Shown in pieces: positions 4,262-47,327 of a stretch of 64,000 nucleotides of DNA. Both the position numbers and the translations under genes were made by a program. The stretch is from a virus: positions 32,001 through 96,000 of IMG/VR virus record IMGVR_UViG_3300033182_000487; one strand, written 5' to 3'. The notes under the pieces are model-generated. The model saw only the letters and a list, made by a program, of their open reading frames with translations, ran no database searches and had not been told where the DNA came from. Within the stretch, counting starts at the first letter, position 1. Every line of letters starts with the position of its first letter.

Positions 4262-6898
4262 ATGATCCCCTCAGACATCCAGCCCCTGATCCGCCTGGCC
4301 GCGACCCTCCCCGTAGGATCACTCGACCGCCGCACCATCCTCGCCTCCTTGAAGAAGCAGGCCGCGTTCGCGGACGACCTCGTTGCACGGGTGGACGTGA
4401 TGTCGGGGTCCATGGGCGGCAAGGACGCGGACCGTGGCCCTCTGTTGAAGGCCGTCCAGGCCGGGCTCCCGGAGAGCGTGTTCAACCTGGAGGAGTTCAC
4501 GGCTGAGGCGTTCCCTCGCTACGGGGTGACCTCCCTCGACGAACTCAGGAAGGCCGAAGACCTCACCGACGAGGACCGCGCCGAACTCAAGTCTCTGGAA
4601 GACCGGATCAAGCCTTTCAGCGCCATGGTCGCGAAGGTGGAGAAGTGGAGCGGGACGAAACTGGGGCAAGACCTCGCCGAGGGTCTCAGCCTGGTCTCCG
4701 GCAAGACCGACCACAAGTTGCGCGAGGCCGTCTGGGCCGGGGTCGCGAAGGGGATGCACGGCGACGTCGAGAAGTTGGAGTCTGGACGGCGCGTCGTCAC
4801 TGACACTGGTCGGGGGTCACTGACCACTCCTGGAGCCCTGGGCACCGAGCCGGAAGACCTCGTGCAGGTGATGCTGGCGGGCGGCATCGAACTGCCGGGC
4901 ATGATCTTCGACAAGAACATGTCGGACAAGACCTACTACGAGGGCGTCCGTGTCCGAGGCACGTTCAAGCCCCGGAAGGAACTGTTCAAGCCGGGCACCA
5001 GCGTCTACACGCTGGCTGGCGCGAAGATCAAGCCGACGAAGATCTCGGAACTGAGGTCGGTCCGAGGCTACGCGAAGTCCGTGGCTTCGACCACGGCCAT
5101 CGACTGGAAGCGGTCGGTCCACATCGGCACCGAGTACATCCTGGCCGAGGGTGATGCCAGTGCTCCTGATCCTGAGCACGCCATGAACATGGGCGGCAAG
5201 GTGAGCCTGGAGTCCCTGCTGGGAGCGGACCTCATTGACGGGGTCACGGTCAGCAAGCAGATGACTCTGGCCCGGTACTACATCAAGAAGATCCGCCAGG
5301 TCATGAAGCGCGCCCTTCCCAAGGGTGTGCAGGCTGCGGTCTGGGAGGCTGTCGCCGAGATGATCACGAAGGGGATCAACCCCTGGAAGGGTCAGGGTCG
5401 CGGTGGCGAGTTCGCCGTTGACTACAACGCCATCGAGAAGTTCCTCGACACCCGTGACGGGCAGAAGATCCTCGACGAGAACGAGATCACCGCCGACTCG
5501 ATCAACAAGAACAACGTCCAGAAGAACTGGGTCCGGGTCCGCGAGAAGATGCTCAAGGCCCTCTCGCAGTTGAGCGACGATGATCTCCTGGCTTCCATCC
5601 ACCTGTCCCTCGCGGCAGGCGGGATGGTGGACGACGTGCCCGAGTACATCAAGAAGATCAAGCGCGACAAGGATCTCTACCAGACCTACATCAGCGACAT
5701 GCGGAAGTACGGCTCGACCCGCGTTGCGGAGCAGGTCGTCAAGCGTGCCGCCGAGCGCCGCGCCATGATCCGGCTCGCAGCGACCCTTCCCGTGGGATCA
5801 CCGGAGCGTCGGGCCATCCTCGCTGGCTGCGAGAAGATGAAGTCCCCGGCCATGCAGGAGTCCTGCGAGGCCATGAAGGCTGGCAAGAAGCCCGGCAAGG
5901 GCAAGGCGAAGTCCGACGACAAGAAGAAGGACGACGGCAAGATGCCCGCCGAGTTGCTGGAGAAGTTCAAGGCGAAGAAGGCCGCTTCCGGCCCTCACCC
6001 CAAGGGTCGCAACTGGAAGGACAAGGGTGGTCGCTGGGTGTGGGCAGGCTCCGATGGTGATCCTGCATTCACCGTGGTCGAGAAGTCCGCTCCGTTCGGC
6101 TCCTACTACAAACTCCAGATGCTTCTCCCCGATGGGGGCATGTACGCCGCTGCGAACCAGAAGACCGAGAAGGAAGACCTGTTCAAGCGTGCTGCGGAAC
6201 TCTACAAGGCGTGGGGCAGCGCAGCCGGGTTCAACCTGAGCCGCCAGCCCGAGCGGTGGAGCAAGATGGCTGGCAAGGGCGACGTGCCCGACGCTCTCAA
6301 GAAGCACCAGTTCACCTCCGAGGACAACCCCAACCCAAAGGGCAACGACAAGGACGGCGACGGCAAGTCCAACGAGCCGAAGCCCGCTGGCCTCAAGGGC
6401 AAGAAGGCTGGTCGCGCTTCCGGTCAGATCATGGCCGAGATCACCAGGTTCGCCGATGCGTTCCTCCCCTCCCTCACCAGGAGGGTTCCTGTGGAGTCTC
6501 TGGGTGATCCCAAGACCTTGAAGCAGATCCAGAACTCGTTGGTGTACGCGATGTCCGATCTGGCGAAGGACGTGGTGATGGAGGAGCGTTTCGGACCCAA
6601 GGGTGGTGGGCAGTACAAGCGGCAGTTCGGCAGCGTCCTGTCCAACCCTCCCCCCTTCTCGTCGCAGACCGCTCACTGGTTTGAGGAGAACCGTGACGCG
6701 CCCAAGTACACCGCTGCATGGAAGGCGATGTCCGGTTGGGCTGCACGGGAAGGCATCTCTCTCGATGCTGGTGCCCGCATCCGTGCCGCAAACAGCAAGA
6801 AGGCCGCGCTGATTCGCCTTGCCGCCGCTCTCCCGGTCGGCTCCTCCGAGCGCAAGACCATCCTCCGCATGGCCGCCTTGAAGGAGATCCGTCCGTGA
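4262..6898 (+). CDS. Modular putative head-cargo polyprotein with three LIRLAxxLPVGS tags and a sigma-like domain
   Basis: Three tag copies; EPEDLVQ..AKSVASTTAIDWKR and NNVQKNWVRVREKMLKAL resemble ECF sigma regions 2 and 4. Confidence 0.7.
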   Translation: MIPSDIQPLIRLAATLPVGSLDRRTILASLKKQAAFADDLVARVDVMSGSMGGKDADRGPLLKAVQAGLPESVFNLEEFTAEAFPRYGVTSLDELRKAEDLTDEDRAELKSLEDRIKPFSAMVAKVEKWSGTKLGQDLAEGLSLVSGKTDHKLREAVWAGVAKGMHGDVEKLESGRRVVTDTGRGSLTTPGALGTEPEDLVQVMLAGGIELPGMIFDKNMSDKTYYEGVRVRGTFKPRKELFKPGTSVYTLAGAKIKPTKISELRSVRGYAKSVASTTAIDWKRSVHIGTEYILAEGDASAPDPEHAMNMGGKVSLESLLGADLIDGVTVSKQMTLARYYIKKIRQVMKRALPKGVQAAVWEAVAEMITKGINPWKGQGRGGEFAVDYNAIEKFLDTRDGQKILDENEITADSINKNNVQKNWVRVREKMLKALSQLSDDDLLASIHLSLAAGGMVDDVPEYIKKIKRDKDLYQTYISDMRKYGSTRVAEQVVKRAAERRAMIRLAATLPVGSPERRAILAGCEKMKSPAMQESCEAMKAGKKPGKGKAKSDDKKKDDGKMPAELLEKFKAKKAASGPHPKGRNWKDKGGRWVWAGSDGDPAFTVVEKSAPFGSYYKLQMLLPDGGMYAAANQKTEKEDLFKRAAELYKAWGSAAGFNLSRQPERWSKMAGKGDVPDALKKHQFTSEDNPNPKGNDKDGDGKSNEPKPAGLKGKKAGRASGQIMAEITRFADAFLPSLTRRVPVESLGDPKTLKQIQNSLVYAMSDLAKDVVMEERFGPKGGGQYKRQFGSVLSNPPPFSSQTAHWFEENRDAPKYTAAWKAMSGWAAREGISLDAGARIRAANSKKAALIRLAAALPVGSSERKTILRMAALKEIRP

Positions 6899-7563
6899 AC
6901 AAGCAAGCACTCCGAGAGGCGTTGATCGCCGAGGGCATGGTGCGTGAAGGCTCCCGCTGGGATGCCTACCCACCCATCAGGGTTCCGCGAAACTGGCGTC
7001 CACCCCACAGCGAAGGCTGCGACGACGACCACAAGGAGTGGGTGCTCCGGGAGTTCCCCAAAGCCGTCGAGACCTTCGCGAAGCGGATGATCATCCCAGC
7101 CCTCAAGCAGCGTGGTTGGCGCGTAACAGATTCGTGGGTCGAGGACGTCGCTGAGGTAGACGAGGACGGCGTTGAACTGATAGTGGAGGTCGAGGGGAAG
7201 GCTGGGCAGACACGCGGCCTCGGTGGACGGAAGTACATCGTCCTTGACCGAAATGTCGAAGACCAACTCACCCTTTACGTCTACCCGGTCATGGAGAACG
7301 TCGAGTTCCACGGCCAGCAGCAGTTCGACGTAGACGAGTTCGCTGAGTGGACCTGGGATGCTGAGTGTCCCGTGGACGAGATCAGAGCCATCCAGGAGGA
7401 GAACGGCTCCCGCGAGCACCCTCCGACACCAAAGGGCGTCCAGACGATCCTGTCCGACTGGGACCGTCTGTGGATCCGCGACAGCAAGGTCCGCTCCAAA
7501 ATCCAGAAGAAGGCCGACCTCCGGGCCATCCTCGCCGAGGAAGGCTTGCTCAAGCAGGGCTGA
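6895..7563 (+). CDS. Hypothetical protein with LRxxLxxEG tags at both termini
   Basis: GTG start overlaps the upstream TGA; LREALIAEGM at the N-terminus and LRAILAEEGLL at the C-terminus. Confidence 0.65.
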   Translation: MNKQALREALIAEGMVREGSRWDAYPPIRVPRNWRPPHSEGCDDDHKEWVLREFPKAVETFAKRMIIPALKQRGWRVTDSWVEDVAEVDEDGVELIVEVEGKAGQTRGLGGRKYIVLDRNVEDQLTLYVYPVMENVEFHGQQQFDVDEFAEWTWDAECPVDEIRAIQEENGSREHPPTPKGVQTILSDWDRLWIRDSKVRSKIQKKADLRAILAEEGLLKQG

Positions 7564-7644
7564 CAGGAAGTACGACTTCCCTCGTGCTCCAGAGCCGGAG
7601 TAGGCTCACGCGGGTACAGTCCCCAGACGAACCTCGGGACTGCT

Positions 7645-8025
7645 ATGCCGACCTACGAATACAAGTGCGAGAAATGCGACCACCGCTTTGAGCGGCTGCT
7701 TCGCATCTCGCAGTACAAGGAACCCCAGGCTTGCCCTGAGTGCGGGCACAGCCCTGCCAAGAAGCAGGTCTCGATGGGGTCAGGCTTCATCCTGCGTGGC
7801 GACGGCTGGGCCGGGAAGAACAACCGGATCAAGGGCCAGATGCGCCGCAAGAACCAGCGACTCAAGGGCAAGGAGGACGAGTGGAAGCGAGACTCCGGCC
7901 CCACGCTGGCCCCCAACGTCGGCGGTGAGCGCACGGAGTCCTGGGCCGACGCCAGCAAACTGGCCGCCTCTCAGGGCAAGGACACGAGCGGCTACGACAA
8001 GTTGGCCCGCAAGGAGAAGAAGTGA
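7645..8025 (+). CDS. FmdB-family zinc-ribbon protein
   Basis: MPTYEYKCEKC..CPECG..F-L-G-GW pattern. Confidence 0.85.
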   Translation: MPTYEYKCEKCDHRFERLLRISQYKEPQACPECGHSPAKKQVSMGSGFILRGDGWAGKNNRIKGQMRRKNQRLKGKEDEWKRDSGPTLAPNVGGERTESWADASKLAASQGKDTSGYDKLARKEKK

Positions 8026-8255
8026 CGCGGGGTGAAGACCCCCCACACCAACCTCCCGCCCCGAGCGGGATCAAGGACTCGTTCAACAAGTCCTTCCAGG
8101 TGGCCTTCGTCACCACGACCTTCATCATCATCGCCTTCGCAGCCCTCGGGGTCAGGATCGCCCGGCGCTTGAAGCGGGACCGCGAGCGGAACAAGAACAT
8201 CATCGACGCTGAGTGGACCCCGGCGGACGACCCGGATGACCTGATGCTTCGGTAG
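8022..8255 (+). CDS. Small single-pass membrane protein
   Basis: Hydrophobic VAFVTTTFIIIAFAALGV followed by a basic stretch. Confidence 0.55.
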   Translation: MTRGEDPPHQPPAPSGIKDSFNKSFQVAFVTTTFIIIAFAALGVRIARRLKRDRERNKNIIDAEWTPADDPDDLMLR

Positions 8256-8264
8256 GCTGCCTAT
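8250..8264 (+). promoter_or_regulatory. Late-class promoter motif
   Basis: CGGTAG-gctgc-CTAT; a variant CGATAG-tcatt-CAAT lies at 8986-9000. Confidence 0.7.
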
Positions 8265-8289
8265 GGCCCCTGTCTGACAGGAGATCACC

Positions 8290-8991
8290 ATGGCGACCCC
8301 TTTCCTCGTTGACCGTTACCCCGGCGTCATCTCGATGGCCGTGAAGAACCGGCCCAGCGTGGCCGAGTACCGATTCGGTGCGGCCAACACCCTCGACAGT
8401 GCGTTCGCTGGGGTCACACCGCTGGAGGACGTCCGCAAGGGCACCTCGTTCCGGTCACCGACTCTGGTGGCCTCGTCGCTCAACCGCTGTGCTGACTCTC
8501 GCACGGGGCAGACCCGCTTCTCGGTGAACATGGACGACTACGCCTCGGCTGCTGTGCCGAGCGATGCCGCGATGGCCTTCTTCCGGGTCCAGGAGATCGA
8601 CCACGCCGGGAACATTCGCCCTGCTGGGCCGATCATGGTCGTCCCTCCCCCCTACCTCAACACGTCGCCGTACCGCACTCTGTCCTTGACGGGCACCGCC
8701 CCGGACCTGACTGCGACGGCGACGGGGCTGCCCCCGGCAGGAGCGATGGTGATCTCGCTCCCCGTGCATGTGGATGATCTCACCATCTACAACGACGATT
8801 CAGCCAACCAGAACAGCCTGTTCATCGGCCTGGGACCAGGACAGCAAGAAATCGAAGTCCCCTACAACACGAGCAACGTGAGCGGCCCGGACATGACCCT
8901 GCCGTTCGGCGGCTCCGTCATCTACATCCGAAGTGCCAGCGACGTAGTACCTTTTCGCCTGACCATGACCCTTGTGGCGGGTCTTCGATAG
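8290..8991 (+). CDS. Hypothetical virion structural protein
   Basis: Late motif, AGGAG RBS, beta-rich composition. Confidence 0.6.
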   Translation: MATPFLVDRYPGVISMAVKNRPSVAEYRFGAANTLDSAFAGVTPLEDVRKGTSFRSPTLVASSLNRCADSRTGQTRFSVNMDDYASAAVPSDAAMAFFRVQEIDHAGNIRPAGPIMVVPPPYLNTSPYRTLSLTGTAPDLTATATGLPPAGAMVISLPVHVDDLTIYNDDSANQNSLFIGLGPGQQEIEVPYNTSNVSGPDMTLPFGGSVIYIRSASDVVPFRLTMTLVAGLR

Positions 8992-9048
8992 TCATTCAAT
9001 ACTCGCCCCAAAGGGTGAGGACCACAACCTTTCCACTGGAGAATCCCC

Positions 9049-9777
9049 ATGGCCAACGAAGCATACATCTACCGCCTTCGCACCGACCTCGGTTCGGGCG
9101 CGATCCAGATCACCGATCTGCTCCCCAACACCTCCCGCCGAGCCTTCTCGTACCAGTCCTACGGACAGAGCGGTTACCTGCCCGCCACGGCTCCCGGTGT
9201 CAGCGCGACCAACCCCACCGATGATGGTGGTGGTGCTGGTGGCGTGACCACGAACGACAGCACGGGCCTCGCCGCCTACATGCTCGGCAACACCAACGAC
9301 GGCACCAGTGGCCGGCAGATCACTGCTGCACAGGCCATCGCCGCTGAGACCACTCTCCTCGGCGCGTTCGCTTCGGGCACTCAGGTCACTGAGGCCGAGA
9401 TCGAGGCTGCGCTGACAGGTGCTGGCTGCGGTGCGGACACCCTTCCCTTCCCGTCGCAGATCCCCGGCAGCGTGTCTGGAACCGCTTCCTCCGCTGGTGG
9501 TGTGGCTTCCGTGGGAAGCCGGAACGACTTCTACAAGGCGCTTTTCAGTTCCTACACGCTCCCCACGGGCTCCGTCTCGGACGCCACGACTGCGCTGGTT
9601 GCAGCGCAGGGTTCGTTCGACGATGACGACTACCGCCAGTTGTACATGTCTGGCGCGATGGCGATCTCCCTGGGACAGGGCGACCTCGCCACCTACTGCG
9701 ATGCCTCCTTCACCTACGGTGGTGTCGCTGGCGCTGCTGCTGTGGTCTACGGACCCGGCGGACTCGTCGTCTCCTGA
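9049..9777 (+). CDS. Gly/Ala/Thr-rich hypothetical structural protein
   Basis: Late-motif variant upstream, GGAG RBS, composition. Confidence 0.6.
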   Translation: MANEAYIYRLRTDLGSGAIQITDLLPNTSRRAFSYQSYGQSGYLPATAPGVSATNPTDDGGGAGGVTTNDSTGLAAYMLGNTNDGTSGRQITAAQAIAAETTLLGAFASGTQVTEAEIEAALTGAGCGADTLPFPSQIPGSVSGTASSAGGVASVGSRNDFYKALFSSYTLPTGSVSDATTALVAAQGSFDDDDYRQLYMSGAMAISLGQGDLATYCDASFTYGGVAGAAAVVYGPGGLVVS

Positions 9778-9862
9778 TCTTTAGAGGGGGTGGTCCTCAC
9801 CTCTCCTTTCCTGTGTCTGAGGCTCCGGGGGTATCTTGCCCTCGGAGCCTCGCTCGTTTGGG

Positions 9863-10114
9863 ATGGAGATGCCCGCAACCCCCTACCGCACCAAAGACCT
9901 CTACTTCTCCGCGTACCTGCGCGTGGCGGGGGTGCCGTTCCTGGGTGCGGAGCGCCAGGACGACGGCAAGGTGGTCTTCCTGTTTGAGGATCTGGGCCCT
10001 CCGGCCATGCGTGATCTCAAGCGGGGCTATTTCTCGGACCAGGCCAAAGTCCCGGCCATGTCCTTCGTGCAGATGATCCGGTCCATGAAGTCCCTCACCT
10101 ATTCGACCCGGTAA
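9863..10114 (+). CDS. Small conserved phage protein (DUF5659-like)
   Basis: YRTKDLYFSAYLRVAG..VVFLF pattern; start codon uncertain. Confidence 0.55.
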   Translation: MEMPATPYRTKDLYFSAYLRVAGVPFLGAERQDDGKVVFLFEDLGPPAMRDLKRGYFSDQAKVPAMSFVQMIRSMKSLTYSTR

Positions 10115-10115
10115 C

Positions 10116-10144
10116 GGGGGGTGCGCCGTCTCGGGCGATGGGTA
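10116..10144 (+). promoter_or_regulatory. Middle-class promoter GGGGGGT-N17-GGGTA
   Basis: Exact consensus before 10154 and the helicase gene. Confidence 0.75.
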
Positions 10145-10153
10145 TGACGGGGC

Positions 10154-10633
10154 ATGGCACTTCCCCTACAGGTCATCGAAGGCATCTTTTGTGAGCGTGA
10201 CGGCGCTTGCGTGGTGACCCGTCCGGGTGAAGCCGACATCAACGTCAACGACGTCCTGGCCGAGTTCGTCGGGAGGCTCGTGGAGATCAACCTCCACCAC
10301 TTCCCCCTCGACATCAACAAGGCGGCCCCCGGCGGGGGATCATGCCTTTGGCACGGGCACTGTCCCCATGGCCACCAGGAGCGTCCCGGCTGGCTGTTCC
10401 ACCAGAAACTGTCCGGCACTCTGACCCTCACCGACACGCACGAGTGGGACGTCGGGGGGACTCTCCTCGACCTGAGCAAGATGCCGGGACATCAGGGGAG
10501 ACTGGTCCTGCTGGACGAGGACGCCATCAAGCCGCCCGAGCCAGGAGATCAGAGGTCCACCGAAGACCTGCTCCGCGAGGCACAGGCGATGGTGGACCTT
10601 CTCACAGGTTTCCAGAAGGTAGTGAAGCCATGA
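10154..10633 (+). CDS. Hypothetical protein with Cys/His cluster
   Basis: CLWHGHCPHGH; ATGA-coupled to the helicase. Confidence 0.6.
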   Translation: MALPLQVIEGIFCERDGACVVTRPGEADINVNDVLAEFVGRLVEINLHHFPLDINKAAPGGGSCLWHGHCPHGHQERPGWLFHQKLSGTLTLTDTHEWDVGGTLLDLSKMPGHQGRLVLLDEDAIKPPEPGDQRSTEDLLREAQAMVDLLTGFQKVVKP

Positions 10634-24222: not shown

Positions 24223-24273
24223 CTCGGTAGGTTTCTATGCGTAGGGTGTCGTATGACTCACGCGAGGATCCCC

Positions 24274-24369
24274 ATGACCCCCTCAGACCACAAAGCCCTG
24301 ATCCGGCTGGCGAGCACCCTTCCTGATGGGGACCGCCTTCGCCGTGCGATCCTGCGGAGCGTGAAGTAG
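24274..24369 (+). CDS. 31-aa peptide consisting only of the LIRLASTLP tag
   Basis: Hand translation MTPSDHKALIRLASTLPDGDRLRRAILRSVK; GAGG RBS; late-like motif CGGTAG-gttt-CTAT at 24225-24238. Confidence 0.75.
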   Translation: MTPSDHKALIRLASTLPDGDRLRRAILRSVK

Positions 24370-28614: not shown

Positions 28615-29042
28615 TGGCAGCGTCCCTCGCCCAGTCTGAGTTCGTCTACAGGTCGGGCACGAGCCCGGACATCTACACGTTCACCATCGTTTCCGATTCC
28701 CAGGGGAACCTGTCGGTGCGGGACATCGAAGACCCCTATGGGTTCGTGATCTCGCCGTACACCCAGATCCCGCAGAGCGTGACCGCCGACATCTCCTCTG
28801 CCATGTCAGCCGTGGAGACTATTTTGGCACTCACATCAGCCGTCAACGGCACCCTGACCTTCACCGCTGAGACATCGAAGTCCGTGACCTTCGCCGAGGC
28901 GTTCGCCGACACCTCGTACCGAGTCCAGACGACCTCCGATGTCTTCGCCCCCTTCCGCATCACAAACAAGACCGTCCTGGGCTTCACCATCCAGGCCGGA
29001 GCCACCATCACCGGGACCGTCGGGTACGACGTCTTCGTGTGA
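28614..29042 (+). CDS. Structural protein with a C-terminal fibre-type module
   Basis: VTF..AF.DT.Y.V..NKT..F.I..TVGY shared with the C-terminus of 55502..57061. Confidence 0.6.
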   Translation: MAASLAQSEFVYRSGTSPDIYTFTIVSDSQGNLSVRDIEDPYGFVISPYTQIPQSVTADISSAMSAVETILALTSAVNGTLTFTAETSKSVTFAEAFADTSYRVQTTSDVFAPFRITNKTVLGFTIQAGATITGTVGYDVFV

Positions 29043-29045
29043 TCA

Positions 29046-29060
29046 CGGTAGCGAGCCTAT
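29046..29060 (+). promoter_or_regulatory. Late-class promoter motif
   Basis: CGGTAG-cgagc-CTAT. Confidence 0.7.
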
Positions 29061-29089
29061 GCCCCCGTGGGGGTGACTGGAGATTCACA

Positions 29090-31018
29090 ATGACCACACT
29101 CCCCATCGAGCGTACTGCTTCGACCTTGCGCAAGGTCAAGTCCATCCTTCGTCGGTCGGGCCTTCTGGACAAGGTTGAACTTGGCGGACGAGGCAGCGAT
29201 TGGAACGTCGAGGCTCCCGATGGGACGATCCAAGAGCAGGTTTCCGACGCGCTCCGCAAAGCCGGGATCAACGTCGGCGGCTACCGCACCGGATACGGCG
29301 CATGGGTCTTGAGCGAGTCGTACCAGACCGACGACTACGACTTCAACAACCCGGCGAGCCGCAGCCACTACGCCTCGGATCACCTGCCTGTCGAAACCCG
29401 CACCGCCGCGTCGTTCTTCGACATGTTCTTCAAGGAGAAGAACGTCCCGTACAAGGTCTTCGACGTGACGGACTCGCAGGGGATCACGCACAGCATCCCC
29501 AACGAGGTCGTGATCAACATGATCAAGCAGACCCGTGGCCGCGAGAAGGCGAAGATCGAGGAGACGCTTCGCATGATCGACTTCAAGAACGGGGATGTGA
29601 ACCACTACCTCCAGCACCTCGCTCGCGGTCTGGCCGAGCAGTACAGCGGAACTCTCCGCTTCGCTTCCGAGCAGCAGGCCGAGAAGTTTGAAGCCGAGGC
29701 CGAAGCCGCCGAGGCACAGGCCGAAGCCGACCGCCAGAAGGCCGATGCCTCCCGCTTGAAGGCGGCGGGTCTTGGACCTGTCGCCCAGACCATCCTTGAC
29801 CAGATGGGTGGCAATCGAGTTCTGGCGATGCTTGGGGTCAACCGCCTTGTTGATCTCCGCAACGGCATCGGGATCGGCTGGCCCAACCGCCAGCGGTCGA
29901 AGGGCAACTACGTCGAGATCATGCTCAACGGGAAAGACCTGTACGACATGACCTTCTACAACCTCTCCATGCGGGGGAAGAAGAAGGTCAAGGAGTTCAA
30001 GGATCTCTACAACGACTCGCTGGCCGATACCTTTGAGGGTCAGACGGGGTGGTATCTCCGCATGGCGTCCGACAAGGCCGCTGCTGGTGGCCTCTACGGC
30101 TACACGAAGGGCACCCAGCGGGACGTGGAAGCGTCCATCCGCAAGGCCCAGCGCCGTGCCGCCAGCATCGCCAAGACCCTCTACGCGAAGGACGAGCGGA
30201 GCGTGGACTTCTTGAAGGCCCACGCGAAGCGGGCCAACAGCAAGACCGCTCGCCTGATCCTGGCTGCCATGAAGACCATCGGACCCCGCGTGGCGTCCGA
30301 GACGCTTCCGAGCGAGCGTCATGCCTCGATCTACCACGCCTCTGAGCAGGAGCAGTTGGAGTACGTCGTCGATGCTCTCCGTCTGGCGGGTGAGCAGGGA
30401 CTCCGTGTGGACGGCCTCCCCCGCAAGGGTGCCCTGGCCGCTCAGAGCAAGGGCCTTGCCGACGCCGAGCGCGGCTACCTCTACATCACCCGGAAGGGTC
30501 GGAACGTCCGCATGGCTGCCGAGGAGAAGGTCGCTGGTGGCCTCTACGGCTACCCCACGAAGACCGCCCGTCTCGCACTGGTCGCTTGCTCCGACCTCCG
30601 CGCCTACGTCGGCGAGGTTGCCTACGGGCTGCACAGCCGCCGCACGGCCCGGTACGACCGGATCACCGGCTTCCTCAAGGAGCACGGCAAGACCGCGAAG
30701 TGCGCCTACTCCCGCATGATCCTCGACTGCTACCCCGACGCTCCGGTGTCGAAGCAGGCGAAGGAGGAGTACCCCTGGCCCGAGTGCATCGCTGACCAGG
30801 AGAAGCAGTACGGCAGCAAGGAGACCGCCGAGAAGGTCTGCGGCAAGATCAAGGCTCAGTCGCAGGGCAAGAGCGCAGGGGCCAAGGACTATGGGATCAT
30901 GGGGGGCAAGTTGGCCTCCAGCGAGATGCTCAAGAAGGCGTTCGTTCCTGACTCGGTGGACGGCTGGCTGGAGTGGGAGGACGGCTCCCGTACCGCTGCC
31001 ACCCGACGCCGTGGTTGA
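29090..31018 (+). CDS. Modular putative head-cargo polyprotein
   Basis: Many RxAS/KxAG linkers; duplicated GGLYGY module (identical 21-nt DNA at 30083 and 30533). Confidence 0.7.
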   Translation: MTTLPIERTASTLRKVKSILRRSGLLDKVELGGRGSDWNVEAPDGTIQEQVSDALRKAGINVGGYRTGYGAWVLSESYQTDDYDFNNPASRSHYASDHLPVETRTAASFFDMFFKEKNVPYKVFDVTDSQGITHSIPNEVVINMIKQTRGREKAKIEETLRMIDFKNGDVNHYLQHLARGLAEQYSGTLRFASEQQAEKFEAEAEAAEAQAEADRQKADASRLKAAGLGPVAQTILDQMGGNRVLAMLGVNRLVDLRNGIGIGWPNRQRSKGNYVEIMLNGKDLYDMTFYNLSMRGKKKVKEFKDLYNDSLADTFEGQTGWYLRMASDKAAAGGLYGYTKGTQRDVEASIRKAQRRAASIAKTLYAKDERSVDFLKAHAKRANSKTARLILAAMKTIGPRVASETLPSERHASIYHASEQEQLEYVVDALRLAGEQGLRVDGLPRKGALAAQSKGLADAERGYLYITRKGRNVRMAAEEKVAGGLYGYPTKTARLALVACSDLRAYVGEVAYGLHSRRTARYDRITGFLKEHGKTAKCAYSRMILDCYPDAPVSKQAKEEYPWPECIADQEKQYGSKETAEKVCGKIKAQSQGKSAGAKDYGIMGGKLASSEMLKKAFVPDSVDGWLEWEDGSRTAATRRRG

Positions 31019-35351: not shown

Positions 35352-35632
35352 ACATCACCGATCCGGTCACCGTCGAGGAGTGGGGCCAGTACATCAGCAA
35401 ACTGAGCGGGGCGAAGTTGTTTTCGCAGGCCATCGCCGCCAACACCCTCGACTTCGTGTTGGGGTTGCAAGAGGAAGGCTTTGGCAGCGACGAGATCACT
35501 GACATCCTGCTCATGTTCGCCCGCCAGTTCGACAAAGTCGATCTGGACCTTCCCAACGGCATCCCTGGCGAGTACCTGTCCTACCCGGACCTGCTCGACT
35601 CGGTAGACCGTCTATCAGCCTCCCAGACGTAA
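35348..35632 (+). CDS. Hypothetical protein
   Basis: ATGA coupling to the helicase gene. Confidence 0.6.
   Translation: MNITDPVTVEEWGQYISKLSGAKLFSQAIAANTLDFVLGLQEEGFGSDEITDILLMFARQFDKVDLDLPNGIPGEYLSYPDLLDSVDRLSASQT
35601..35615 (+). promoter_or_regulatory. Late-class promoter motif
   Basis: CGGTAG-accgt-CTAT; another (CGGTAT-ctcgc-CTAT) lies at 35994-36008. Confidence 0.7.
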
Positions 35633-35646: not shown

Positions 35647-35970
35647 ATGAAGTCCCTGACTGCTTCCGACCGCAAGACCCTCATTCGCCTCGCCTCGACA
35701 CTCCCTGTGGGTGACGAGACTCGCAAGGCCATCCTCACCGGACTCGCCCAGACCCGCGAGGCTGGACGCCCCTGGGGCGGCCCCGGCTACGCGGCGAAGG
35801 CCGAGGACTACGACATCCCTCCCGCCCAGGGCGGCAGCGGCTCCCCGCCGTGCCAGCCGCTGGGTGACGGTCCCTGCTACCGGAAGCACGAGAACTCGCC
35901 TCCCGGCGGCACGAACGGCTCCGCGCAGCGCGCGAAGTACAACCAGTGGTATCGCGAAAACGCGATGTAA
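35647..35970 (+). CDS. LIRLASTLP-tagged small protein
   Basis: ASDRKTLIRLASTLPVGDETRKAILTGL followed by a Gly/Pro/Cys peptide. Confidence 0.75.
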   Translation: MKSLTASDRKTLIRLASTLPVGDETRKAILTGLAQTREAGRPWGGPGYAAKAEDYDIPPAQGGSGSPPCQPLGDGPCYRKHENSPPGGTNGSAQRAKYNQWYRENAM

Positions 35971-38655: not shown

Positions 38656-38678
38656 TCGGGGGTTGAGGTAGGTGATCC

Positions 38679-39560: not shown

Positions 39561-39569
39561 AGCGCCGTT

Positions 39570-42600: not shown

Positions 42601-44847
42601 CTGCGCCTCAACGACCGTCTGTTCCTCCAGAACCGCATCCGTCCCGGTGCTGGAACGGCCAACATGGACACCCAGTTCGTGCTCGACCAGTGCCAGTTGA
42701 AGGTGATGGGAGGCACGGGCCTCGCCCAGGCCGCCCTGACCGCCAACGAGCAGGGCTACGCCGCCATCCGGGCCACCATCATGCCTCCTACCACCTACGG
42801 TGAGGTCGGCTTTTCCGGTGGACAGGACGCTGCCGGACAGCCTGTCGTGACCTTCTTCGCGGCTGGTGGCACCACCGACCAGAACAACGTCTTCCAGATG
42901 ACCTACGAAGGCACTCCGATCACCGTCGAGTTCACCGACTCGGCAGGTGCTCCGATTGCTGCCGGTGGTTCGGCAGACGTTCCGCTGGGGCCACTGACCG
43001 ATGGGAACAGCATCCTGGGTCAGATCAGCGCAGCCATGACCGCCGCTGGGGTCACGGGGATTTCTCAGGAGGGTGCGGGCATTCGCTTCCGTGGTTCCTC
43101 CTCGGCGTCCTCGGCCACCATCGTCATCGGTAGCGGCAACGCCAACACCGACCTGGGCTTCGACGACGGCGACATCGTGTACCGCACGGACGTCTCCGTG
43201 GAGTCCCTGGTCAGTGTCCTCAACTCCAGTACCCTCTGGAACGACGGCTCTGGACGCGGCTTCGCCAAGACCGTTCGGGACGACACCAACGCTTCCTTCC
43301 TGTACCTCCAGAGCACGGGTACGTCGGGCGCTGGTACGACCTCCTCCATCGCCATCGAGGATGCAGCAGCCGACAACGCTCTGCGCCCCGGCAGCGGTCT
43401 GGGGGCCACGGACGGCGACGGCAACGTGGGTGAGGCGGCCATCGACGGCTTCTTCGTCACCTCGTCTGATCCCGTGTCCGGTTCGGGTACGGCCAACACC
43501 TCCATCCTCAACTCGGGAACGGGTCAGGACGGCGATGTCGGCGCGACCTACCGTGACCTGGTGACCGGCCTGACCTTCACCATCCTGCCCCGTGCAGGTG
43601 GCGCGGCCTACCCGGTCGGTGCGACCCTGACCTTCACGGTCCGGGCGGGCGTCACGACGGATGCCAACCTCCCGGTCAACACCATCCCCGGTGTAGAACT
43701 CTACGTCTCCAACACCTCCGGGATCACCGTTGGTGACACCGCTGTGGTGCAGACCTACGAGAAGGGCGGCAACCAGCCTGCCGTGGGCGACCTCTACTAC
43801 GTCTCCTACGACTACCGGAAGCAGGACTACAGCACCCAACTGTTCACGAAGCAGTCGGCTGTGGAGGCCACCTACGGTGCAGCGGGCCCGGTCAACCCGG
43901 TTTCGCTGGCTGGCTACCTGGCCATCCTCAACGGGGCGGTCCTGATCGCCATCAAGCAGGTGGAGAAGGACACCGACTCCGACTCCGACGGCACGAACGA
44001 CAGCGCCAGCACGGACGCTTTCCTCGCCGCCATCGACGAGGTGGAGGGGACGCTCCCTGGTGGGGCCTACCCGGACTACCTCGTTCCGCTCAAGGGTGAC
44101 TCCCTGGAGTTGTTCCAGTACCTCGCACGGTCCTGCGACATCCAGTCGAGCATCCGCTACCGCGCCGAGCGCACCGCGATCTGTGGCCTGTCCGCAGGTA
44201 CGCAGCCGCGTGAAGCCGGTGAGACGGCGGAAGCCATCGCCCGGACCCGGATGCGCCTCGTGTACCCGGACATCTGCACCCTGAGCCTGTCGCGGGCCGA
44301 CGGGACCACGGACTCCTACCTGCTCGACGGCACCTACCTCGCCGCCGCGTGGTCCGGGAACCGTGCCTCGCCGACCATCGACGTTGCGACCCCGTGGACC
44401 CGTGGCCGGATCTTCGGCTTCGACGAACTGGCTCGCAAGATGGATGCAGTCCAGCAGAACCAGGTCGCTACTCGCGGTGTCACGGTGTTCAACCAGCGCC
44501 AGAGCATCGTCGAGTGCCGCCAGGGTCTGTCCACCGACATGACCAACGTGCTGACCAAGACCCCGACCGTGATCACCATCGCGGACGAGGTCCAGCGCCA
44601 GGCTCGTGCCACCCTGGACAAGTTCATCGGGATCAAGTTCCTGTCGAACGTGACCACGACCATCGAGGGCCAGTTGTCCAAGACCCTCAAGCAGTTGGTC
44701 GCGGCTCAGATCATCAACACCTTCACGGGCGTCACCGCCAACGTGTCACCTGATGATCCGACCGCTGCCGAGGTGGAGGCGTACTACCAGCCGGTGTTCC
44801 CACTTTTGTACATTATCGTGACCTTCAACCTGCGCTCAAGTCTTTGA
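39679..44847 (+). CDS. Contractile tail sheath protein with large insertions
   Basis: N-terminal PPGVY; C-terminal sheath domain ending YQPVFPLLYIIVTFNL. Confidence 0.85.
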   Translation: MAFPGSVYAPPGVYTQTLFEDPLQSIAGNVRIPLLIGTGSEILTQSGLELVRGSSSSVDQRVVQEDETARAVVSITEAGLVTLGAFDSVLDRIQTKHYPIVNGNGTGTTATDSASVNVTINGEPVVVLAIDGAKGILTLSSSPDPGDEVKVTYYFNRTDTLITDTLSDQISPDAPEIIGAVGESYVVIEGVNDTLSFTVDSATVVDVTITPSAPAGWSAAQVASFINAAAAGTSLSASTTVNNLGQTVLYLTADRDIVVGNGLANTTLGLDLGADTARNKTFYTFQRPIVDGSNGGVTTTDPADVTVKVDGTQVIPTSVDGASGAVVLPFAPEIGAVVTCQYYFNSWQDTFDYLQHRGVVEITQCGITPDRNDYIDGADFVLKDDKILWGTAVTTEAGVHTTGSAYFDDVQISTTLVDTRQYLAACSPVVNTSVNPPVENRKDFTLPLQPTTGNGRSTPLGAETYSKVANGRVDLPTDRPDLVWAYWGFSLEDALDRGRVEVTKVESSTSTITLREPVPVGATVYATFYYNTLVDQAYSVACDTAGASGVGTYSVTNEAGTSLLTPQFGSKSAALATVTVEFPSGSERTPDCRFESPFDTSSFVGPVEEDVTVTFASQDATLAKYTLPGSGPYYMVQNASDQLSINMDNSGAPGDIDLSSVSRAWVVGDEVVYSPDGSNEYEDGVATTNNEVDLMIDGVLIQSRADTGDRTAIVATDFQDIGRYAQSINRAAFGDYADAAGGVLVLAASTDANNFQLDAEASNIDDYYVGWTVRITSGAEAGSEATVTSYNGTTNAVVVGAGLGGDPGLANYVLYNPDALPVLKASTRFLSSLTIAAGEFDIINWRIVGSSATITGTTLGIETAASGGVFTSATALATDVQTVLQNSINAVAAVPAIAPQVLVSADSDGRLNFKLVPDGADLEGAYLEFITDGTPAQDFCVLAGLDTDTAGGSQTHLYNRAIASTFEFAGATTTLRLNDRLFLQNRIRPGAGTANMDTQFVLDQCQLKVMGGTGLAQAALTANEQGYAAIRATIMPPTTYGEVGFSGGQDAAGQPVVTFFAAGGTTDQNNVFQMTYEGTPITVEFTDSAGAPIAAGGSADVPLGPLTDGNSILGQISAAMTAAGVTGISQEGAGIRFRGSSSASSATIVIGSGNANTDLGFDDGDIVYRTDVSVESLVSVLNSSTLWNDGSGRGFAKTVRDDTNASFLYLQSTGTSGAGTTSSIAIEDAAADNALRPGSGLGATDGDGNVGEAAIDGFFVTSSDPVSGSGTANTSILNSGTGQDGDVGATYRDLVTGLTFTILPRAGGAAYPVGATLTFTVRAGVTTDANLPVNTIPGVELYVSNTSGITVGDTAVVQTYEKGGNQPAVGDLYYVSYDYRKQDYSTQLFTKQSAVEATYGAAGPVNPVSLAGYLAILNGAVLIAIKQVEKDTDSDSDGTNDSASTDAFLAAIDEVEGTLPGGAYPDYLVPLKGDSLELFQYLARSCDIQSSIRYRAERTAICGLSAGTQPREAGETAEAIARTRMRLVYPDICTLSLSRADGTTDSYLLDGTYLAAAWSGNRASPTIDVATPWTRGRIFGFDELARKMDAVQQNQVATRGVTVFNQRQSIVECRQGLSTDMTNVLTKTPTVITIADEVQRQARATLDKFIGIKFLSNVTTTIEGQLSKTLKQLVAAQIINTFTGVTANVSPDDPTAAEVEAYYQPVFPLLYIIVTFNLRSSL

Positions 44848-44884
44848 GCCCCAATACAAACGAGCAGCGTTTAGGTTGCTAATG

Positions 44885-44925
44885 ACCCTCCGGTCGGGTA
44901 GATTCCCGACCGGAGGGTTTCGTTT
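44885..44925 (+). terminator. 14-bp hairpin terminator that also masks the downstream RBS
   Basis: ACCCTCCGGTCGGG-TAGATT-CCCGACCGGAGGGT then TTCGTTT. Confidence 0.8.
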
Positions 44926-46437
44926 ATGGACTGCTCAATCTGTGGTTTCACCGTCTCCAACGCACGGGGACTCGTCGCTCACTTCCGCCACCAGTCGGAC
45001 ACGCATCCCGACTACAAGGAGTGGTCTGAGGAGCAGAAGTGGAAGGACAAGACCGAGGGGGTGGACTTCGTTCGGTGTCGGGAGTGTGGGTTCCGCTCCA
45101 AGAGCCTCGCCCGACACTTGAAGTCGGCACATGGGTTCACCGCCGACGAGTACCGGGAGAAGCACGGGGCAGACGCTCCGACCCGATGCAACAGCACGGA
45201 GGCGAAGCGTCGTGCTGGGATCAAGGCGGCTCACGCCCGTACCGACCGTAAGGGACAGACCAAGACGGTTGCCTGTACGGGCTGCGGGGTGGACACCGAG
45301 ATCGCTCTGTTCGCTGCTGCACCCACAGCGGTTTGCGGTGCCTGTCGGGATTCAGTGTGGGAGGGCAAGTCAGAGCCAGAGGACTTCGTGACTTGTCTCG
45401 ACTGCGGACACCGTGCGGAGAACCTGACCAGCCATGTCACCAACGCCCACCCAGACTACCGAGATCGCCACCCGGATGCGGTGATGGTGGCGTTGCGCTC
45501 CGCTGTTCGGGACAAGGAAGCCTTGCGGGGTCGTACCTTGTCTTCCGAGGTGCGGGCGAAGATGTCTGCCAACGCGGGTCGGTGGAACAAGGGCTTGACG
45601 AAGGAGACGCATCCCAGCCTCCGTTCGGCTTCGGAGAAGATGCGGACCAAGGTGCCGTGGTCGAAGGGTCTGACTGCGATGACGGACGAACGGCTCCAGC
45701 AGACGGTGGCGAAGTTGAGGCTCTATGTGGGGGAGAGCCGTCCGTGGTCGAACGGGTTGAAGGCCGACCTCACTCTGGAGGACTTTCAGCCGTTCCTTGA
45801 TGATGAAGGCTGCGTGGATCGTCGTGCCATCGTGGAGGCCACGGGTCTGTCATGGCGGACGATCTTCACCTACATGCAGTCGCTTGATCTGGAGACTTCG
45901 GACAAGTACATCCGAGAGCGGTCAGAAGACCAGATCATCAGGCTCGACCGAGAGGTGTTGGAACAGTCGTTGATGGAGAACGGGAAGGCTTGCATCGCCC
46001 GGATCATGCGTGACACCGGGCACTCGTTCTCGGTGGTCAAGAGGGAGTGCGCCCGACACGGGTTGGAGATGTTCACCCGAATGGGTGAGCAGATCCTTGT
46101 GCTGGACGCGATCTCGGAGGCGTTGGGGGGCAAGCCGTACAAGATGGAGTGGAAGGATTGGAGGTTCGTCAACCCCGCTACAGGTTGGCGTTTCAAGTTC
46201 GACGGCTACTTCCCCGATGTGGGGTTGGTGGTCGAGTATCACGGGCATCAGCACTACATCTTCCCGAATGCTTGGCACTACAAGCCCGAGCACAAGGAAG
46301 CATGGCACGCGATGTTGGAGCGCGACCGGATCAAGAAGGAGATGGTCGAGGCGTCAAGTGATCTCACCTACTTGGAAGTCCGCTTCGATGACTCGTTGAC
46401 CTCGGTAGATTTCTACCGGGGCTTGCTTCGTCGGTAG
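44926..46437 (+). mobile_element. Free-standing homing endonuclease-like gene (zinc fingers, NUMOD repeats, Vsr/EDxHD-like nuclease)
   Basis: C2H2/MucR-like fingers; RGRTLSSEVRAKMS; WNKGLTKET repeats; FDGYF..LVVEYHGHQHY..RDRIK; atypical codon usage. Confidence 0.75.
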
Positions 46438-46456
46438 TCGTCTGTTACTGTCGCTT

Positions 46457-46798
46457 TGCCCGCAAGGGTACCTTCTTGGTTCTCGTAGCCGAGAAGGTGG
46501 TAGGGGTTCAATGCCTTCCACCGGGCGAGCCTACTATCAACTTGAGGGGTGGGTTCCTCTCTTTCCTCCAAGCCTTTGGTTTAGGGGGAGCCTGTCGAGC
46601 AAGGTTCTGGCTCGACACGGAGGCTTCAACGCTTCCGTAAAAGGCATGGGTCGGTCGGGCGTTTCGTGCTCCCAAGATCGACCCGAGACCCTTCGGGGAC
46701 TCCAAAATAGCCGCCATCGCCATCGCGATCACGGAGTGCGCCTTCCTTTCGGCACACTCCCCAAACCCCCAGTAAGGTATCGTCCACTGGGGGTTTGG
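46457..46798. ncRNA. Candidate structured non-coding RNA
   Basis: About 8-9 consecutive stem-loops, including GCAA and C(UUCG)G tetraloops, with no credible ORF. Confidence 0.5.
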
Positions 46799-46820
46799 TC
46801 TATCTGGGGGCTTCGTTCGT

Positions 46821-46835
46821 CGGTAGGGAGCCTAT
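46821..46835 (+). promoter_or_regulatory. Late-class promoter motif
   Basis: CGGTAG-ggagc-CTAT; another (CGGTAG-cctct-CTAT) lies at 47329-47343. Confidence 0.7.
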
Positions 46836-46880
46836 GGGCTCACCACAGGCATCAAGACTTCTCGTAGGAGTGGCCCCATC

Positions 46881-47327
46881 ATGCCCCGCATCATCACCGC
46901 CGCTGACCGATCTGCTCTCATTCGTCTGGCGAGCACCCTCCCTGCGGGCTCTGAGGAGCGGAAGGTGATCCTCGCCGGGTTGAAGCAGGCCCGCGCCCCC
47001 CGTGAGAACCAGACGGCTGGTCGCCTATCGGCTGATATGCGGAAACGAGAGGACGAGATCGAGTTCCTGTCCAGCGCGGGCGGCAAGGTGTTGAAGACCT
47101 ACAGGAGCGTCTGGATGGAAGCCGCGAGGCTGGCGGAAACCTATGAGGGGTCGCCAAGTTACTCCCCTGATAGTGATTGGGGTGTTGAACAGGATCAGCG
47201 GGAGATCACGAACCAACTTGGTATGCAGGCGGCATCACTGAGGCAGACGGCACAAAGGCTTCGGCAGTTGGTTGATGAACTGGAATCCTTCGCCGCTCAG
47301 GCGAAGAAGGTCGCTGATTCGTTCTAA
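46881..47327 (+). CDS. LIRLASTLP-tagged helical protein
   Basis: AADRSALIRLASTLPAGSEERKVILAGLKQA followed by a domain with atypical codon usage. Confidence 0.75.
   Translation: MPRIITAADRSALIRLASTLPAGSEERKVILAGLKQARAPRENQTAGRLSADMRKREDEIEFLSSAGGKVLKTYRSVWMEAARLAETYEGSPSYSPDSDWGVEQDQREITNQLGMQAASLRQTAQRLRQLVDELESFAAQAKKVADSF

Follow-up and report, generated by a model that had tools for sequence, protein, structure and literature searches.

A helical-hairpin tag shared by unrelated proteins of uncultured jumbo phages: a candidate address for loading cargo into the phage head

A conserved unit of 29-33 residues recurs on otherwise unrelated proteins in a clade of uncultured jumbo phages whose hosts are probably Acidobacteriota. 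Most likely, this tag docks the proteins that carry it onto one shared phage partner, which is plausibly the assembling head. The best reading of the sequence comparisons and predicted structures, to which we assign slightly less than an even chance, is that the tagged proteins are loaded into the head and subsequently injected into the host. A literature search yielded no published description of the tag.

The window, that is, the entire stretch of 64,000 nucleotides analyzed here, belongs to a 113-kb contig. The six tag copies reported in an earlier note on this DNA were all recovered by a six-frame regular-expression scan, with the motif located at 4286, 5765, 6809, 24298, 35680 and 46917, on the plus strand throughout. 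The profile search of the whole contig that the note had recommended, performed with a 32-tag profile against the six-frame translation, detected 9 copies in 7 genes, with scores of 39-66 bits, compared to 7.6 bits for the best sequence that is not a copy. Three of these copies lie beyond the window limits, two at the N-termini of open reading frames (ORFs) of 171 and 57 aa and one, on the minus strand, at the C-terminus of a 280-aa ORF. Among the 617 pairs of codons for the same residue in different copies, 359 (58%) consist of different codons, and nucleotide identity between copies is 58% on average; because the synonymous codons have diverged, the tag is conserved at the protein level and recent duplication is excluded. 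Once the tags are masked, the 7 tagged proteins of this genome are mutually unrelated (best E 0.16), as had been claimed for the sequences that follow the tag, with the exception that the copy at 24298 carries no cargo at all, being a 38-aa ORF that consists of the tag only.

The consensus of the tag, xLTASDRSALIRLASTLPVGSxERRAILAGLxKxA, spans ~33 residues, and nearly every position is conserved, on both helix faces as well as in the loop. The AlphaFold2 model (27 tags; mean pLDDT 84.5) consists of a helix at positions 4-15, a loop and a second helix at positions 22-35, so that the tag is predicted to be a self-contained helix-loop-helix, or helical hairpin, that folds on its own. The possibility, raised earlier, that the tag is part of a known folded domain is not borne out: it has no Pfam family and no specific structural match. 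A structure search aligned the model with a fragment of the Pa193 scaffold (9b40_G; 39 of 41 residues, Z 4.9, rmsd 2.8), a non-specific match given that many unrelated hairpins score equally. The KQA/REA-type linker described after N-terminal copies holds as a tendency and is not universal: [KR]-x-A occurs at +3 to +9 past 'IL' in 70% of 71 distinct N-terminal tags. This site maps to the end of helix 2 in the AlphaFold2 model, and the element could be merely that helix end; [KR]-x-A-[SAG] is enriched among the late proteins.

The first tagged gene in the window (4262..6898, plus strand) encodes a basic protein of 878 aa (pI 9.5) whose three tags are joined by lysine-rich linkers. Copy 1 is N-terminal (residues 1-32; 4262..4357, plus strand, 52.7 bits), copy 2 is internal (residues 493-525; 5738..5836, plus strand, 58.2 bits) and is followed by a conserved AGCEK...NCE motif, and copy 3 is C-terminal (residues 841-873; 6782..6880, plus strand, 51.1 bits) and represents the subtype KKAALIRLAA...ERKTILRMA. 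Related phages encode homologs of 590-880 aa, which are tagged at both termini and near residue 495. The predicted structure of this protein is of low overall confidence (AlphaFold2, mean pLDDT 57.8), with every tag modeled as a helical hairpin; no fold match and no Pfam or PHROG family was found for it.

The tag-only ORF (24253..24369, plus strand, 48.4 bits) encodes 38 aa, or 31 aa from an inner ATG at 24274. Its residues 8-33 are identical at 25 of 26 positions to the N-terminal tag of P0092, a 308-aa two-tag protein, and its end, RRAILRSVK*, is identical to the C-terminus of the same protein. In the related phage G002, the corresponding slot, just upstream of the primase gene, is occupied by a 412-aa two-tag gene. 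Judging from these sequence matches, the 38-aa ORF is probably what a deletion left of a gene with two tags.

The two remaining tagged genes of the window encode a 107-aa basic protein (35647..35970, plus strand; pI 9.3, tag at residues 3-35, 66.0 bits), with an 83% identical ortholog in G001, and a 148-aa protein (46881..47327, plus strand; tag at residues 4-36, 66.2 bits) in which a linker and a helical tail come after the N-terminal tag. Next to the latter, a promoter-like motif and a gene for a C39-like cysteine peptidase (47329..48253, plus strand; PF13529, E 6e-11) open a gene run that ends with the large terminase (50176-52137, plus strand; PHROG family). In G002, the slot before the peptidase gene holds not the 148-aa gene but another tagged gene, of 476 aa and with two tags. 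Two small genes separate the large terminase from the portal gene (53063-54766, plus strand; PHROG family), and all four of these genes lack the tag.

The promoter-like motif, CGGTA-N5-6-CTAT, is found 20 times in the contig compared to ~1 occurrence expected from shuffles, nearly always 13-70 nt 5' of a start codon. It precedes 6 of the 7 tagged genes in the contig, including all four in the window: two tandem CGGTA-N6-CTAT copies at 4180-4194 and 4215-4229 (plus strand), at distances of 68 and 33 nt from the ATG at 4262, and single plus-strand motifs at 24225..24238 (with N5 spacing), 35601..35615 and 46821..46835. The same motif is present before the operon ending in the terminase, both genes flanking the portal (one plus-strand site is at 52132), a gene encoding a beta-helix protein and the gene that opens the protease-scaffold-capsid block, whereas none of the replication genes of the contig is preceded by it (rough Fisher test, p ~1e-4). 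G002, with 37 sites, 9 of them immediately before tagged genes, displays the same pattern of gene classes. The motif behind the 'late-class promoter' of the earlier note is real, and the late timing is suggested by the genes that share it; the tag resides in genes whose motif is common to packaging, head and tail-spike genes.

Far beyond this contig, the tag was detected at E<=0.001 in ~1,670 clusters (50% identity) among 1.84 billion metagenome representatives and, among 185,579 genomes of cellular species, in only 1; it is essentially phage-specific. This breadth, along with the unrelatedness of the masked proteins in this genome, upholds the notion of a portable tag. Among the single-tag representatives, with a median length of 137 aa, 63 of 65 have the tag at residues ~4-36. 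In the top 120 proteins, 110 copies are internal (~40%) and 47 are C-terminal (18%), and some tagged proteins hold up to three or four copies. The non-tag parts have a median pI of 9.0, compared to 6.0 for the proteins of the phage overall. A Pfam scan of 200 tagged proteins produced matches in a handful only, among them ADPrib_exo_Tox (E 7e-22), Pentapeptide (E 2e-16) and Fusello_VP2; ADP-ribosyltransferase, pentapeptide-repeat and Fusello_VP2-like domains are all compatible with injected effectors.

The phage encodes a protease-like protein, an acidic 491-aa scaffold-like protein and, downstream of the latter, an HK97-type capsid protein. The tag profile matches none of the terminase, portal, protease-like, scaffold-like, 195-aa and capsid proteins; the scaffold-like protein shows a weak 7-column likeness to the tag (CIRLATAML; hhalign P 0.01). 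Between relatives, the capsid protein is the most conserved one (99% and 93% identity, compared to 30-97% for others), and in G002, a tagged gene bearing the promoter-like motif is located directly 3' of the portal gene. In the sister phage LR745208.1, the capsid protein is 85.5% identical but the tag of this clade is absent, and therefore the partner is not simply 'this capsid fold'. The three-tag protein and CGGTA-N5-6-CTAT are likewise absent from this sister phage. Instead, LR745208.1 possesses its own N-terminal version of the tag, MTTLRSKLIRLAHxNPxLRPxLLPLLKEA, in 9 copies, with helix 1 aligning with the tag of this clade (hhalign P 4e-5); one of the genes with this version is flanked by the scaffold-like gene on one side and by the decoration and capsid genes on the other. 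In the cultured relative Tunturi 5, neither such a tag family nor the three-tag family was found. Both this lineage-specific version and the tag-only ORF as a probable deletion remnant are newly seen here.

Under the head-loading scenario, the clade would add the tag, mainly at the N-terminus, to a large, fast-changing set of small, basic, late-made proteins. All tags would bind one conserved phage-encoded partner, possibly the scaffold core or the procapsid's inner face, while the head assembles; because the tags would bind at this stage, the tagged proteins would end up inside the head and reach the host along with the DNA. Two to four tags could confer higher avidity or bridge several sites; internal and C-terminal tags are unlike the T4 signal and fit any multivalent binding module. 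The K-x-A that is semi-conserved where helix 2 ends might be the site at which the prohead protease cuts off the tag. Tag repeats could double as recombination sites, and the 38-aa ORF would then exist because recombination deleted the cargo between two of them. In its most general form, a proposition to which we give a probability perceptibly short of even, the tag would be a natural modular cargo-loading address of the heads of jumbo phages; its versions would be specific to lineages and co-evolve with the receptor, the injected small effectors would number well over a thousand, including an ADP-ribosyltransferase and a pentapeptide-repeat protein, and the tag repeats would drive cassette exchange and cargo loss.

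With its one conserved hydrophobic face, a hairpin of 33 aa requires a partner, and that partner could be another tag. If the tag hairpins self- or cross-associate, they would pair in four-helix bundles of a late assembly, with multi-tag proteins, such as the 878-aa one, serving as scaffolds and single-tag proteins as clients, and the capsid shell would not be recognized directly; candidates for this assembly are an inner body, a cytoplasmic factory and a condensate. The top fold matches of the tag include hairpins from structures that are, by entry title, homodimers or complexes (the Sam68 Qua1 homodimerization domain, 2xa6; UvrB, 2nmv; a C-terminal fragment of TssA, 6h8f), many proteins combine two to four tags with lysine-rich, low-confidence linkers between them, and the tag and the three-tag family are missing together from LR745208.1 and Tunturi 5. 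We nevertheless consider this explanation unlikely: G002, with its 24 tag matches, has no clear homolog of the three-tag protein in 297 kb, and conservation on both helix faces and in the loop exceeds the needs of a simple bundle. Self-association is also compatible with head targeting, because the network itself could be packaged.

A role of the tag as a small motif of the SAP/HeH/Rho-N type, which would bind nucleic acids and endow late proteins with affinity for DNA, is less probable still. Such motifs resemble the tag in consisting of a helix, a glycine-containing loop and another helix, with conserved arginines; one of the six copies gave a weak HeH match in Pfam at E<=10 (E 0.18, 11 residues); furthermore, the tagged proteins are basic, with lysine-rich linkers in the 878-aa protein, and some contain a Fusello_VP2-like domain, which we take to be DNA-binding. 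However, the other five copies matched none of the SAP, HeH and Rho_N profiles at E<=10. The loop of the tag is two to three residues shorter than in these motifs, the tag itself is just mildly basic (pI 8.4), and no SAP, LEM or Rho chain is among its 50 best structural matches, which do not form an exclusive list.

We likewise doubt, slightly more strongly, that the tag anchors proteins to the outside of the virion, in the manner of decoration proteins or fiber adaptors that display variable domains. Most tagged proteins are very small and basic, without recognizable binding domains, and ADP-ribosyltransferase and pentapeptide cargo is likelier to be useful inside the cell than on the capsid surface, even if expression appears to be late, with a motif common to tail-spike-like genes, a few tagged proteins contain beta-solenoid or hexapeptide repeats reminiscent of fibers and spikes, and a tagged gene of LR745208.1 adjoins a decoration-like gene. 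That the tag is a double-glycine-like leader for processing or export by the neighboring C39-like peptidase is highly improbable: although a tagged gene, a different one in each case, lies directly 5' of the peptidase gene in G000 and G002, no GG/GA/GS cleavage motif ends the conserved part, the second helix is still conserved after the loop 'G-S', internal and C-terminal copies are incompatible with a leader, no transporter domain was found fused to the peptidase, and the peptidase neighbors just 1 of the 7 tagged genes.

To our knowledge, T4 and a few others are the only large phages in which the choice of proteins for enclosure and injection is understood in detail. If head loading by the tag is true, the ~1,670 clusters would amount to a candidate catalog of injected effectors of uncultured soil jumbo phages, compiled with one profile, and the two mutually exclusive tag versions in sister lineages would be a natural experiment pointing toward the receptor. 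Should the tag instead be a general assembly or DNA-binding module, it would still represent an undescribed, very widespread, phage-specific mini-domain.

The earlier note modeled the tag on phage T4, where the capsid-targeting sequence (CTS) is a peptide of ~10 residues, N-terminal only, that is cleaved by the prohead protease. The T4 internal proteins are diverse defense proteins in which the CTS is the sole conserved part (PMC3012670). The tag is similarly a short N-terminal address on diverse, fast-evolving, mostly basic proteins, with packaging here being the presumed part, and one type of tagged cargo is an ADP-ribosyltransferase, as is T4 Alt, which is annotated as residing in the capsid and entering with the DNA. 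Unlike the T4 CTS, the tag is predicted to be a helical hairpin of 33 aa, can also sit internally or at the C-terminus, and reaches three or four copies per protein; sequence similarity to the T4 CTS was not seen, phmmer found no match between Alt and the tagged proteins, and the head of this phage is of the HK97 type, with a separate scaffold, rather than T4-like.

In size (~30-40 residues) and predicted shape, the tag resembles the coat-binding helix-turn-helix of scaffold proteins (P22 gp8; Pa193, 9b40 chain G). In P22 gp8, this domain is C-terminal and, on its own, can load foreign cargo. Unlike such domains, the tag is missing from the scaffold-like protein of this phage and present on hundreds of non-scaffold proteins. 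Encapsulin cargo-loading peptides, which are short, extended and mostly C-terminal, load unrelated cargo into an HK97-fold shell and are sometimes multi-copy; the tag shares with them the character of a short portable address, occasionally with several copies per protein, and the 'GS' residues, but it is predicted to form a helical hairpin and usually stands at the N-terminus, and the phage that encodes it is tailed, with genes for terminase, portal and capsid.

The Dar system of phage P1 reportedly packages anti-restriction proteins, and we know of no recognizable 30-aa tag shared within this system or those of phiKZ and SPN3US, whose ejection proteins bear propeptides. According to two published accounts, large phages package many proteins, which the prohead protease processes (PMC5694885, PMC7411985). 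Unlike all these systems, the one described here is such that a single profile suffices to find ~1,670 clusters.

The tag, a 33-residue helix-loop-helix module with the consensus xLTASDRSALIRLASTLPVGSxERRAILAGL that is usually followed by x-K-x-A, is a portable, autonomous, phage-specific mini-domain under strong constraint at the protein level. All six copies reported in the earlier note were recovered, three within the 878-aa three-tag protein (4262-6898, plus strand; copies at 4286, 5765 and 6809) and the others at 24298, 35680 and 46917. A scan of the whole contig with a profile of 32 tags, as that note had proposed, brings the number to nine copies in seven genes, with scores of 39-66 bits against 7.6 for the best non-copy. 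The tagged proteins are the 878-aa protein, a 38-aa product that consists of the tag only, proteins of 107, 148, 171 and 57 aa, and a 280-aa protein with a C-terminal tag. Outside the tag these proteins are indeed unrelated, as had been claimed for those of the window: the seven tag-masked sequences share nothing (best E 0.16). Judged by sequence divergence, the copies are old, with a mean nucleotide identity of 58%; residues that are the same in two copies are encoded by different codons in 359 of 617 pairs, and selection therefore acts on the peptide.

An AlphaFold2 prediction from an alignment of 27 tags (mean pLDDT 84.5) consists of two helices, at 4-15 and 22-35, with the TLPxGS loop between them, and in the model of the 878-aa protein (30 homologues; mean pLDDT 57.8) each tag forms its own hairpin between low-confidence linkers. 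Foldseek and VIA-align searches for a specific fold match to the tag returned generic helical hairpins only. Second among the matches (Z 4.9), but level with many unrelated chains, is a C-terminal piece of the Pa193 scaffolding protein in its capsid-bound state; its likeness to the modeled tag is a lead, not evidence. An ECF-sigma-like domain in the 878-aa protein is unsupported, with neither a meaningful match nor a sigma factor in Foldseek searches of the PDB and viral libraries. In single-tag representatives (median length 137 aa), the tag occupies approximately residues 4-36 in 63 of 65 cases, and of the copies in the best-scoring multi-tag proteins, 102 are N-terminal, 110 are internal and 47 are C-terminal. 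The C-terminal copies represent a distinct subtype, KKAALIRLAA..ERKTILRMAxGx, ending at the stop codon, and in the three-tag family AGCEK..NCE follows the internal copies.

The tag is widespread among viruses. It is present in 15 IMG/VR loci on contigs of 10-297 kb, and five large related contigs have 4-24 matches each. Searches identify at least 565 tagged proteins in a set of 5.8 billion (tag counts that come from word-indexed searches are lower bounds), and 1,670 clusters (50% identity) that match the tag at E<=0.001, 643 of these at E<=1e-10, among 1.84 billion representatives. In cellular genomes, two degenerate DNA patterns yield a single true copy among 185,579 bacterial and archaeal species, one genome each, which makes the tag an essentially phage-borne element. 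This sole copy (L034:2130-2260, minus strand) resides on RGPS01000140.1, a 15.5-kb contig of a Terriglobia MAG that is probably a binned phage fragment. From this copy, together with the kinship to Tunturi 5, a cultured jumbo phage of Acidobacteriota (PMC11924767), we infer Acidobacteriota hosts. Comparison of the six copies with Pfam at E<=10 produced nothing usable, the tag profile had chance matches only among PDB sequences, the ESM Atlas gave no usable match, a literature search for the tag motif strings found nothing relevant, and the 148-aa tagged protein had no tblastn match in GenBank phages.

Most of the tagged proteins have no annotation. Among 200 of them, Pfam recognizes only DUF2958, YdcK beta-solenoid, hexapeptide repeats, Fusello_VP2, L5 gp82, one ADP-ribosyltransferase exoenzyme domain (E 7e-22), one pentapeptide-repeat protein (E 2e-16) and, weakly, DnaJ-CXXCXGXG and Anti-TRAP; no replication or metabolic enzymes were found in these 200. 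The representative with the ADP-ribosyltransferase domain was not located by motif patterns, PDB searches or a T4 Alt query, and ten tagged proteins of the related contig G002 (IMGVR_UViG_3300025141_000016) match no functional family in PHROGs. The non-tag parts are basic, with a median pI of 9.0 and 65-68% above 8, compared to a median of 6.0 and 31% above 8 for all proteins of the phage, and hydrophobic segments are rare. Single-linkage clustering of the masked cargo was discarded because it collapsed to one large component, probably via low-complexity linkers. A 448-aa metagenomic protein, P0164, carries a tag at each end and a VIDGHHRY stretch reminiscent of the nuclease motif of the ParB/sulfiredoxin type, with no Pfam report at E<=0.001. 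In another virus (IMGVR_UViG_3300008117_000488, L008:74-3100), five tandem tagged genes lie within 5.3 kb, several of which share the extended start MESSPMSRRLTA.., which marks them as a locally expanding tagged gene family.

A promoter-like motif links the tagged genes to the structural genes. The earlier note ascribed to them a late-class promoter motif; the promoter-like motif CGGTA-N5-6-CTAT, in its fuller form (T/C)CGGTA-N5-6-CTAT(G), does exist, with 20 occurrences in the contig against about 1 expected, and its assignment to the late class is what the gene content would suggest. Nearly every site falls between genes, in the coding orientation, with a start codon 13-70 nt downstream; the sites in the window are at 4180, 4215, 8250, 24225, 28246, 29046, 35601, 35994, 37286, 46821, 47329, 52132, 54769, 55446 and 59099, and six lie elsewhere in the contig. 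As stated in that note, all four tagged genes of the window are preceded by the motif (the 878-aa gene twice, and the 38-, 107- and 148-aa genes). Outside the window, it is found before the 171-aa gene, which the 57-aa tagged gene directly follows, and at the 5' end of the annotated 280-aa ORF. It is found also before the run from the C39 peptidase to the terminase, the genes flanking the portal, the gene of a 519-aa beta-helix protein and the gene that opens the protease-scaffold-capsid block, and precedes none of the recognised replication genes of the contig; therefore, the tagged genes inside the replication block bring their own motif, of the structural-gene class. The motif is present before 6 of 7 tagged genes and 13 of about 100 others, for which a rough Fisher test gives p ~1e-4. 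G002 has 37 sites, nine directly before tagged genes, and across all loci the strict motif is present within 120 nt upstream of 15 of 31 N-terminally tagged genes. CAAGACYTYB, a candidate shared 5'-UTR word, was dropped, being mostly inside genes.

In general, tagged genes behave like morons, occupying positions of variable content among genes that are conserved. Ahead of the C39 peptidase, the counterpart of the 148-aa gene in G002 is one for 476 aa; behind the portal, G002 has a tagged gene where the present contig has an untagged one for 144 aa; and immediately upstream of the primase gene, where the 38-aa ORF lies in the present contig, G002 has a motif-bearing two-tag gene for 412 aa, whereas in G001, another related contig, this slot is empty. 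The 38-aa ORF, read from an inner methionine, is MTPSDHKALIRLASTLPDGDRLRRAIL followed by RSVK and the stop codon, and the 308-aa metagenomic protein P0092 starts with MTPSDHKALIRLASTLPDGDHLRRAIL and ends with ...RRAILRSVK. Given these matching ends, the ORF amounts to the N-terminal tag of P0092 fused to the final residues of the C-terminal one, and the simplest reading of the sequences is that the cargo of a resident gene would have been deleted by recombination between its two tags. The alternative, an 'empty cassette' awaiting cargo, was rejected in favor of a remnant of a two-tag gene.

The window covers bases 32001-96000 of a single 113,148-bp virus contig with a GC content of 64%, a fragment (completeness about 25% by CheckV) with nearly all genes on the plus strand; the gene calls are heuristic, based on a simple rule for GC at third codon positions, and the start codons given are therefore approximate. 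The window encompasses a replication and recombination block (RecD-like helicase, RecA, SbcCD-like pair, PD-(D/E)XK nuclease, Toprim primase, clamp loader and SNF2 helicase), a peptidoglycan-binding protein, a 1,722-aa protein, the C39-like peptidase, two beta-helix proteins, the large terminase (50176-52137) and the portal (53063-54766). The terminase operon also encodes a 146-aa untagged protein (48262-48702) with a very Lys/Arg-rich first half (MTTKHAKKSKRKDRTTEVRTDKKDPNKVRGK...), which may be a DNA-associated head protein. Two proteins encoded next to each other, of 519 and 412 aa (55502-58308), the former preceded by the motif, have weak pectinesterase and polygalacturonase matches and are probably beta-helix tail spikes or depolymerases. 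Synteny between the present contig and G002 (297 kb) leaves the G002 end at about 291 kb and picks up at base 122 with the terminase gene, so that G002, although rated 67% complete by CheckV, may represent almost the entire genome in circularly permuted form.

The head block, with 931-aa, 491-aa and 195-aa proteins and a 290-aa HK97-type major head protein, lies just past the window. The 931-aa protease-like protein (contig 101640-104435; L003:5640-8435) has a weak head-maturation-protease match and intein-like matches. This protein, a 625-aa methyltransferase-like protein (L001:25-1902, minus strand) and a 1,004-aa RNR large subunit (L002:12035-15049, minus strand) match PHROG families 36001, 26446 and 36964, which gather unrelated enzymes, suggesting intein insertions. 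The 491-aa scaffold-like protein (contig 104432-105907; L003:8432-9907) is extremely acidic; the repeat ...DRIxRLERVLxxLA occurs in it twice, and a further stretch, KAAxCIR[LI]A[ST]AMLG, is conserved. The similarity of CIR[LI]A[ST]AML to tag helix 1 is weak (hhalign P 0.01, 7 columns) and is a lead only. Against composition-matched shuffles, the seven highest z-scores for [KR]-x-A-[SAG] belong to a 659-aa protein (29039-31018; 17 versus 3.2 expected, z 8.2), the scaffold-like (6.1) and protease-like (5.5) proteins, three structural-block proteins (57070-61933; 3.7-4.6) and the 878-aa protein (3.9). This enrichment may fit prohead-protease sites and could equally come from Lys/Ala-rich linkers.

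The records nearest to the capsid protein come from LR745208.1, an uncultured 485-kb sister phage (85.5% identity), Tunturi 5 (50%) and Bacillus phage G (40%). The complete LR745208.1 genome lacks both the present tag and any homologue of the three-tag protein, and the promoter-like motif occurs there only at chance level (2 sites). An unbiased search for short stretches common to its proteins reveals its own N-terminal tag, MTTLRSKLIRLAHxNPxLRPxLLPLLKEA, in nine copies, each directly after the start codon of otherwise unrelated proteins and none in the present contig, G001 or G002. The first helices of the two tags align (RSKLIRLAHENP versus RSALIRLASTLP; hhalign P 4e-5, 12 columns), and each sister lineage thus uses its own version of one kind of address, the pattern that tag-receptor co-evolution would produce; no comparable tag family was found in the more distant Tunturi 5. 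With different tags alongside capsid proteins this similar, the receptor would not simply be any capsid of this family.

The tag is found on a great many small basic proteins, the genes of which carry the structural-class motif, and the common partner of the tag would be a part of the assembling head. Loading of tagged proteins into the head is the reading that we tentatively prefer. It is favored by the motif class shared with structural genes; by the slot after the portal in G002 and by the one in LR745208.1 that has the scaffold-like gene on one side and those of the decoration-like and capsid proteins on the other, where a 134-aa tagged gene lies (398171-398575; L067:18171-18575, minus strand); by the presence of a prohead-protease-like gene; and by the conservation of the capsid protein, the highest of any protein in the clade (99% and 93%). 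Against it count the large number of copies at internal and C-terminal positions and the lack of a tag in any recognised head protein. The tags might instead bind one another in an assembly network, which we consider distinctly less probable; DNA binding by the tag itself is unlikely, external display of the tagged proteins slightly more so, and a peptidase leader very unlikely. For head loading, finally, speaks the similarity of the cargo to that of phage T4: small, basic and fast-evolving, with an ADP-ribosyltransferase among the proteins.
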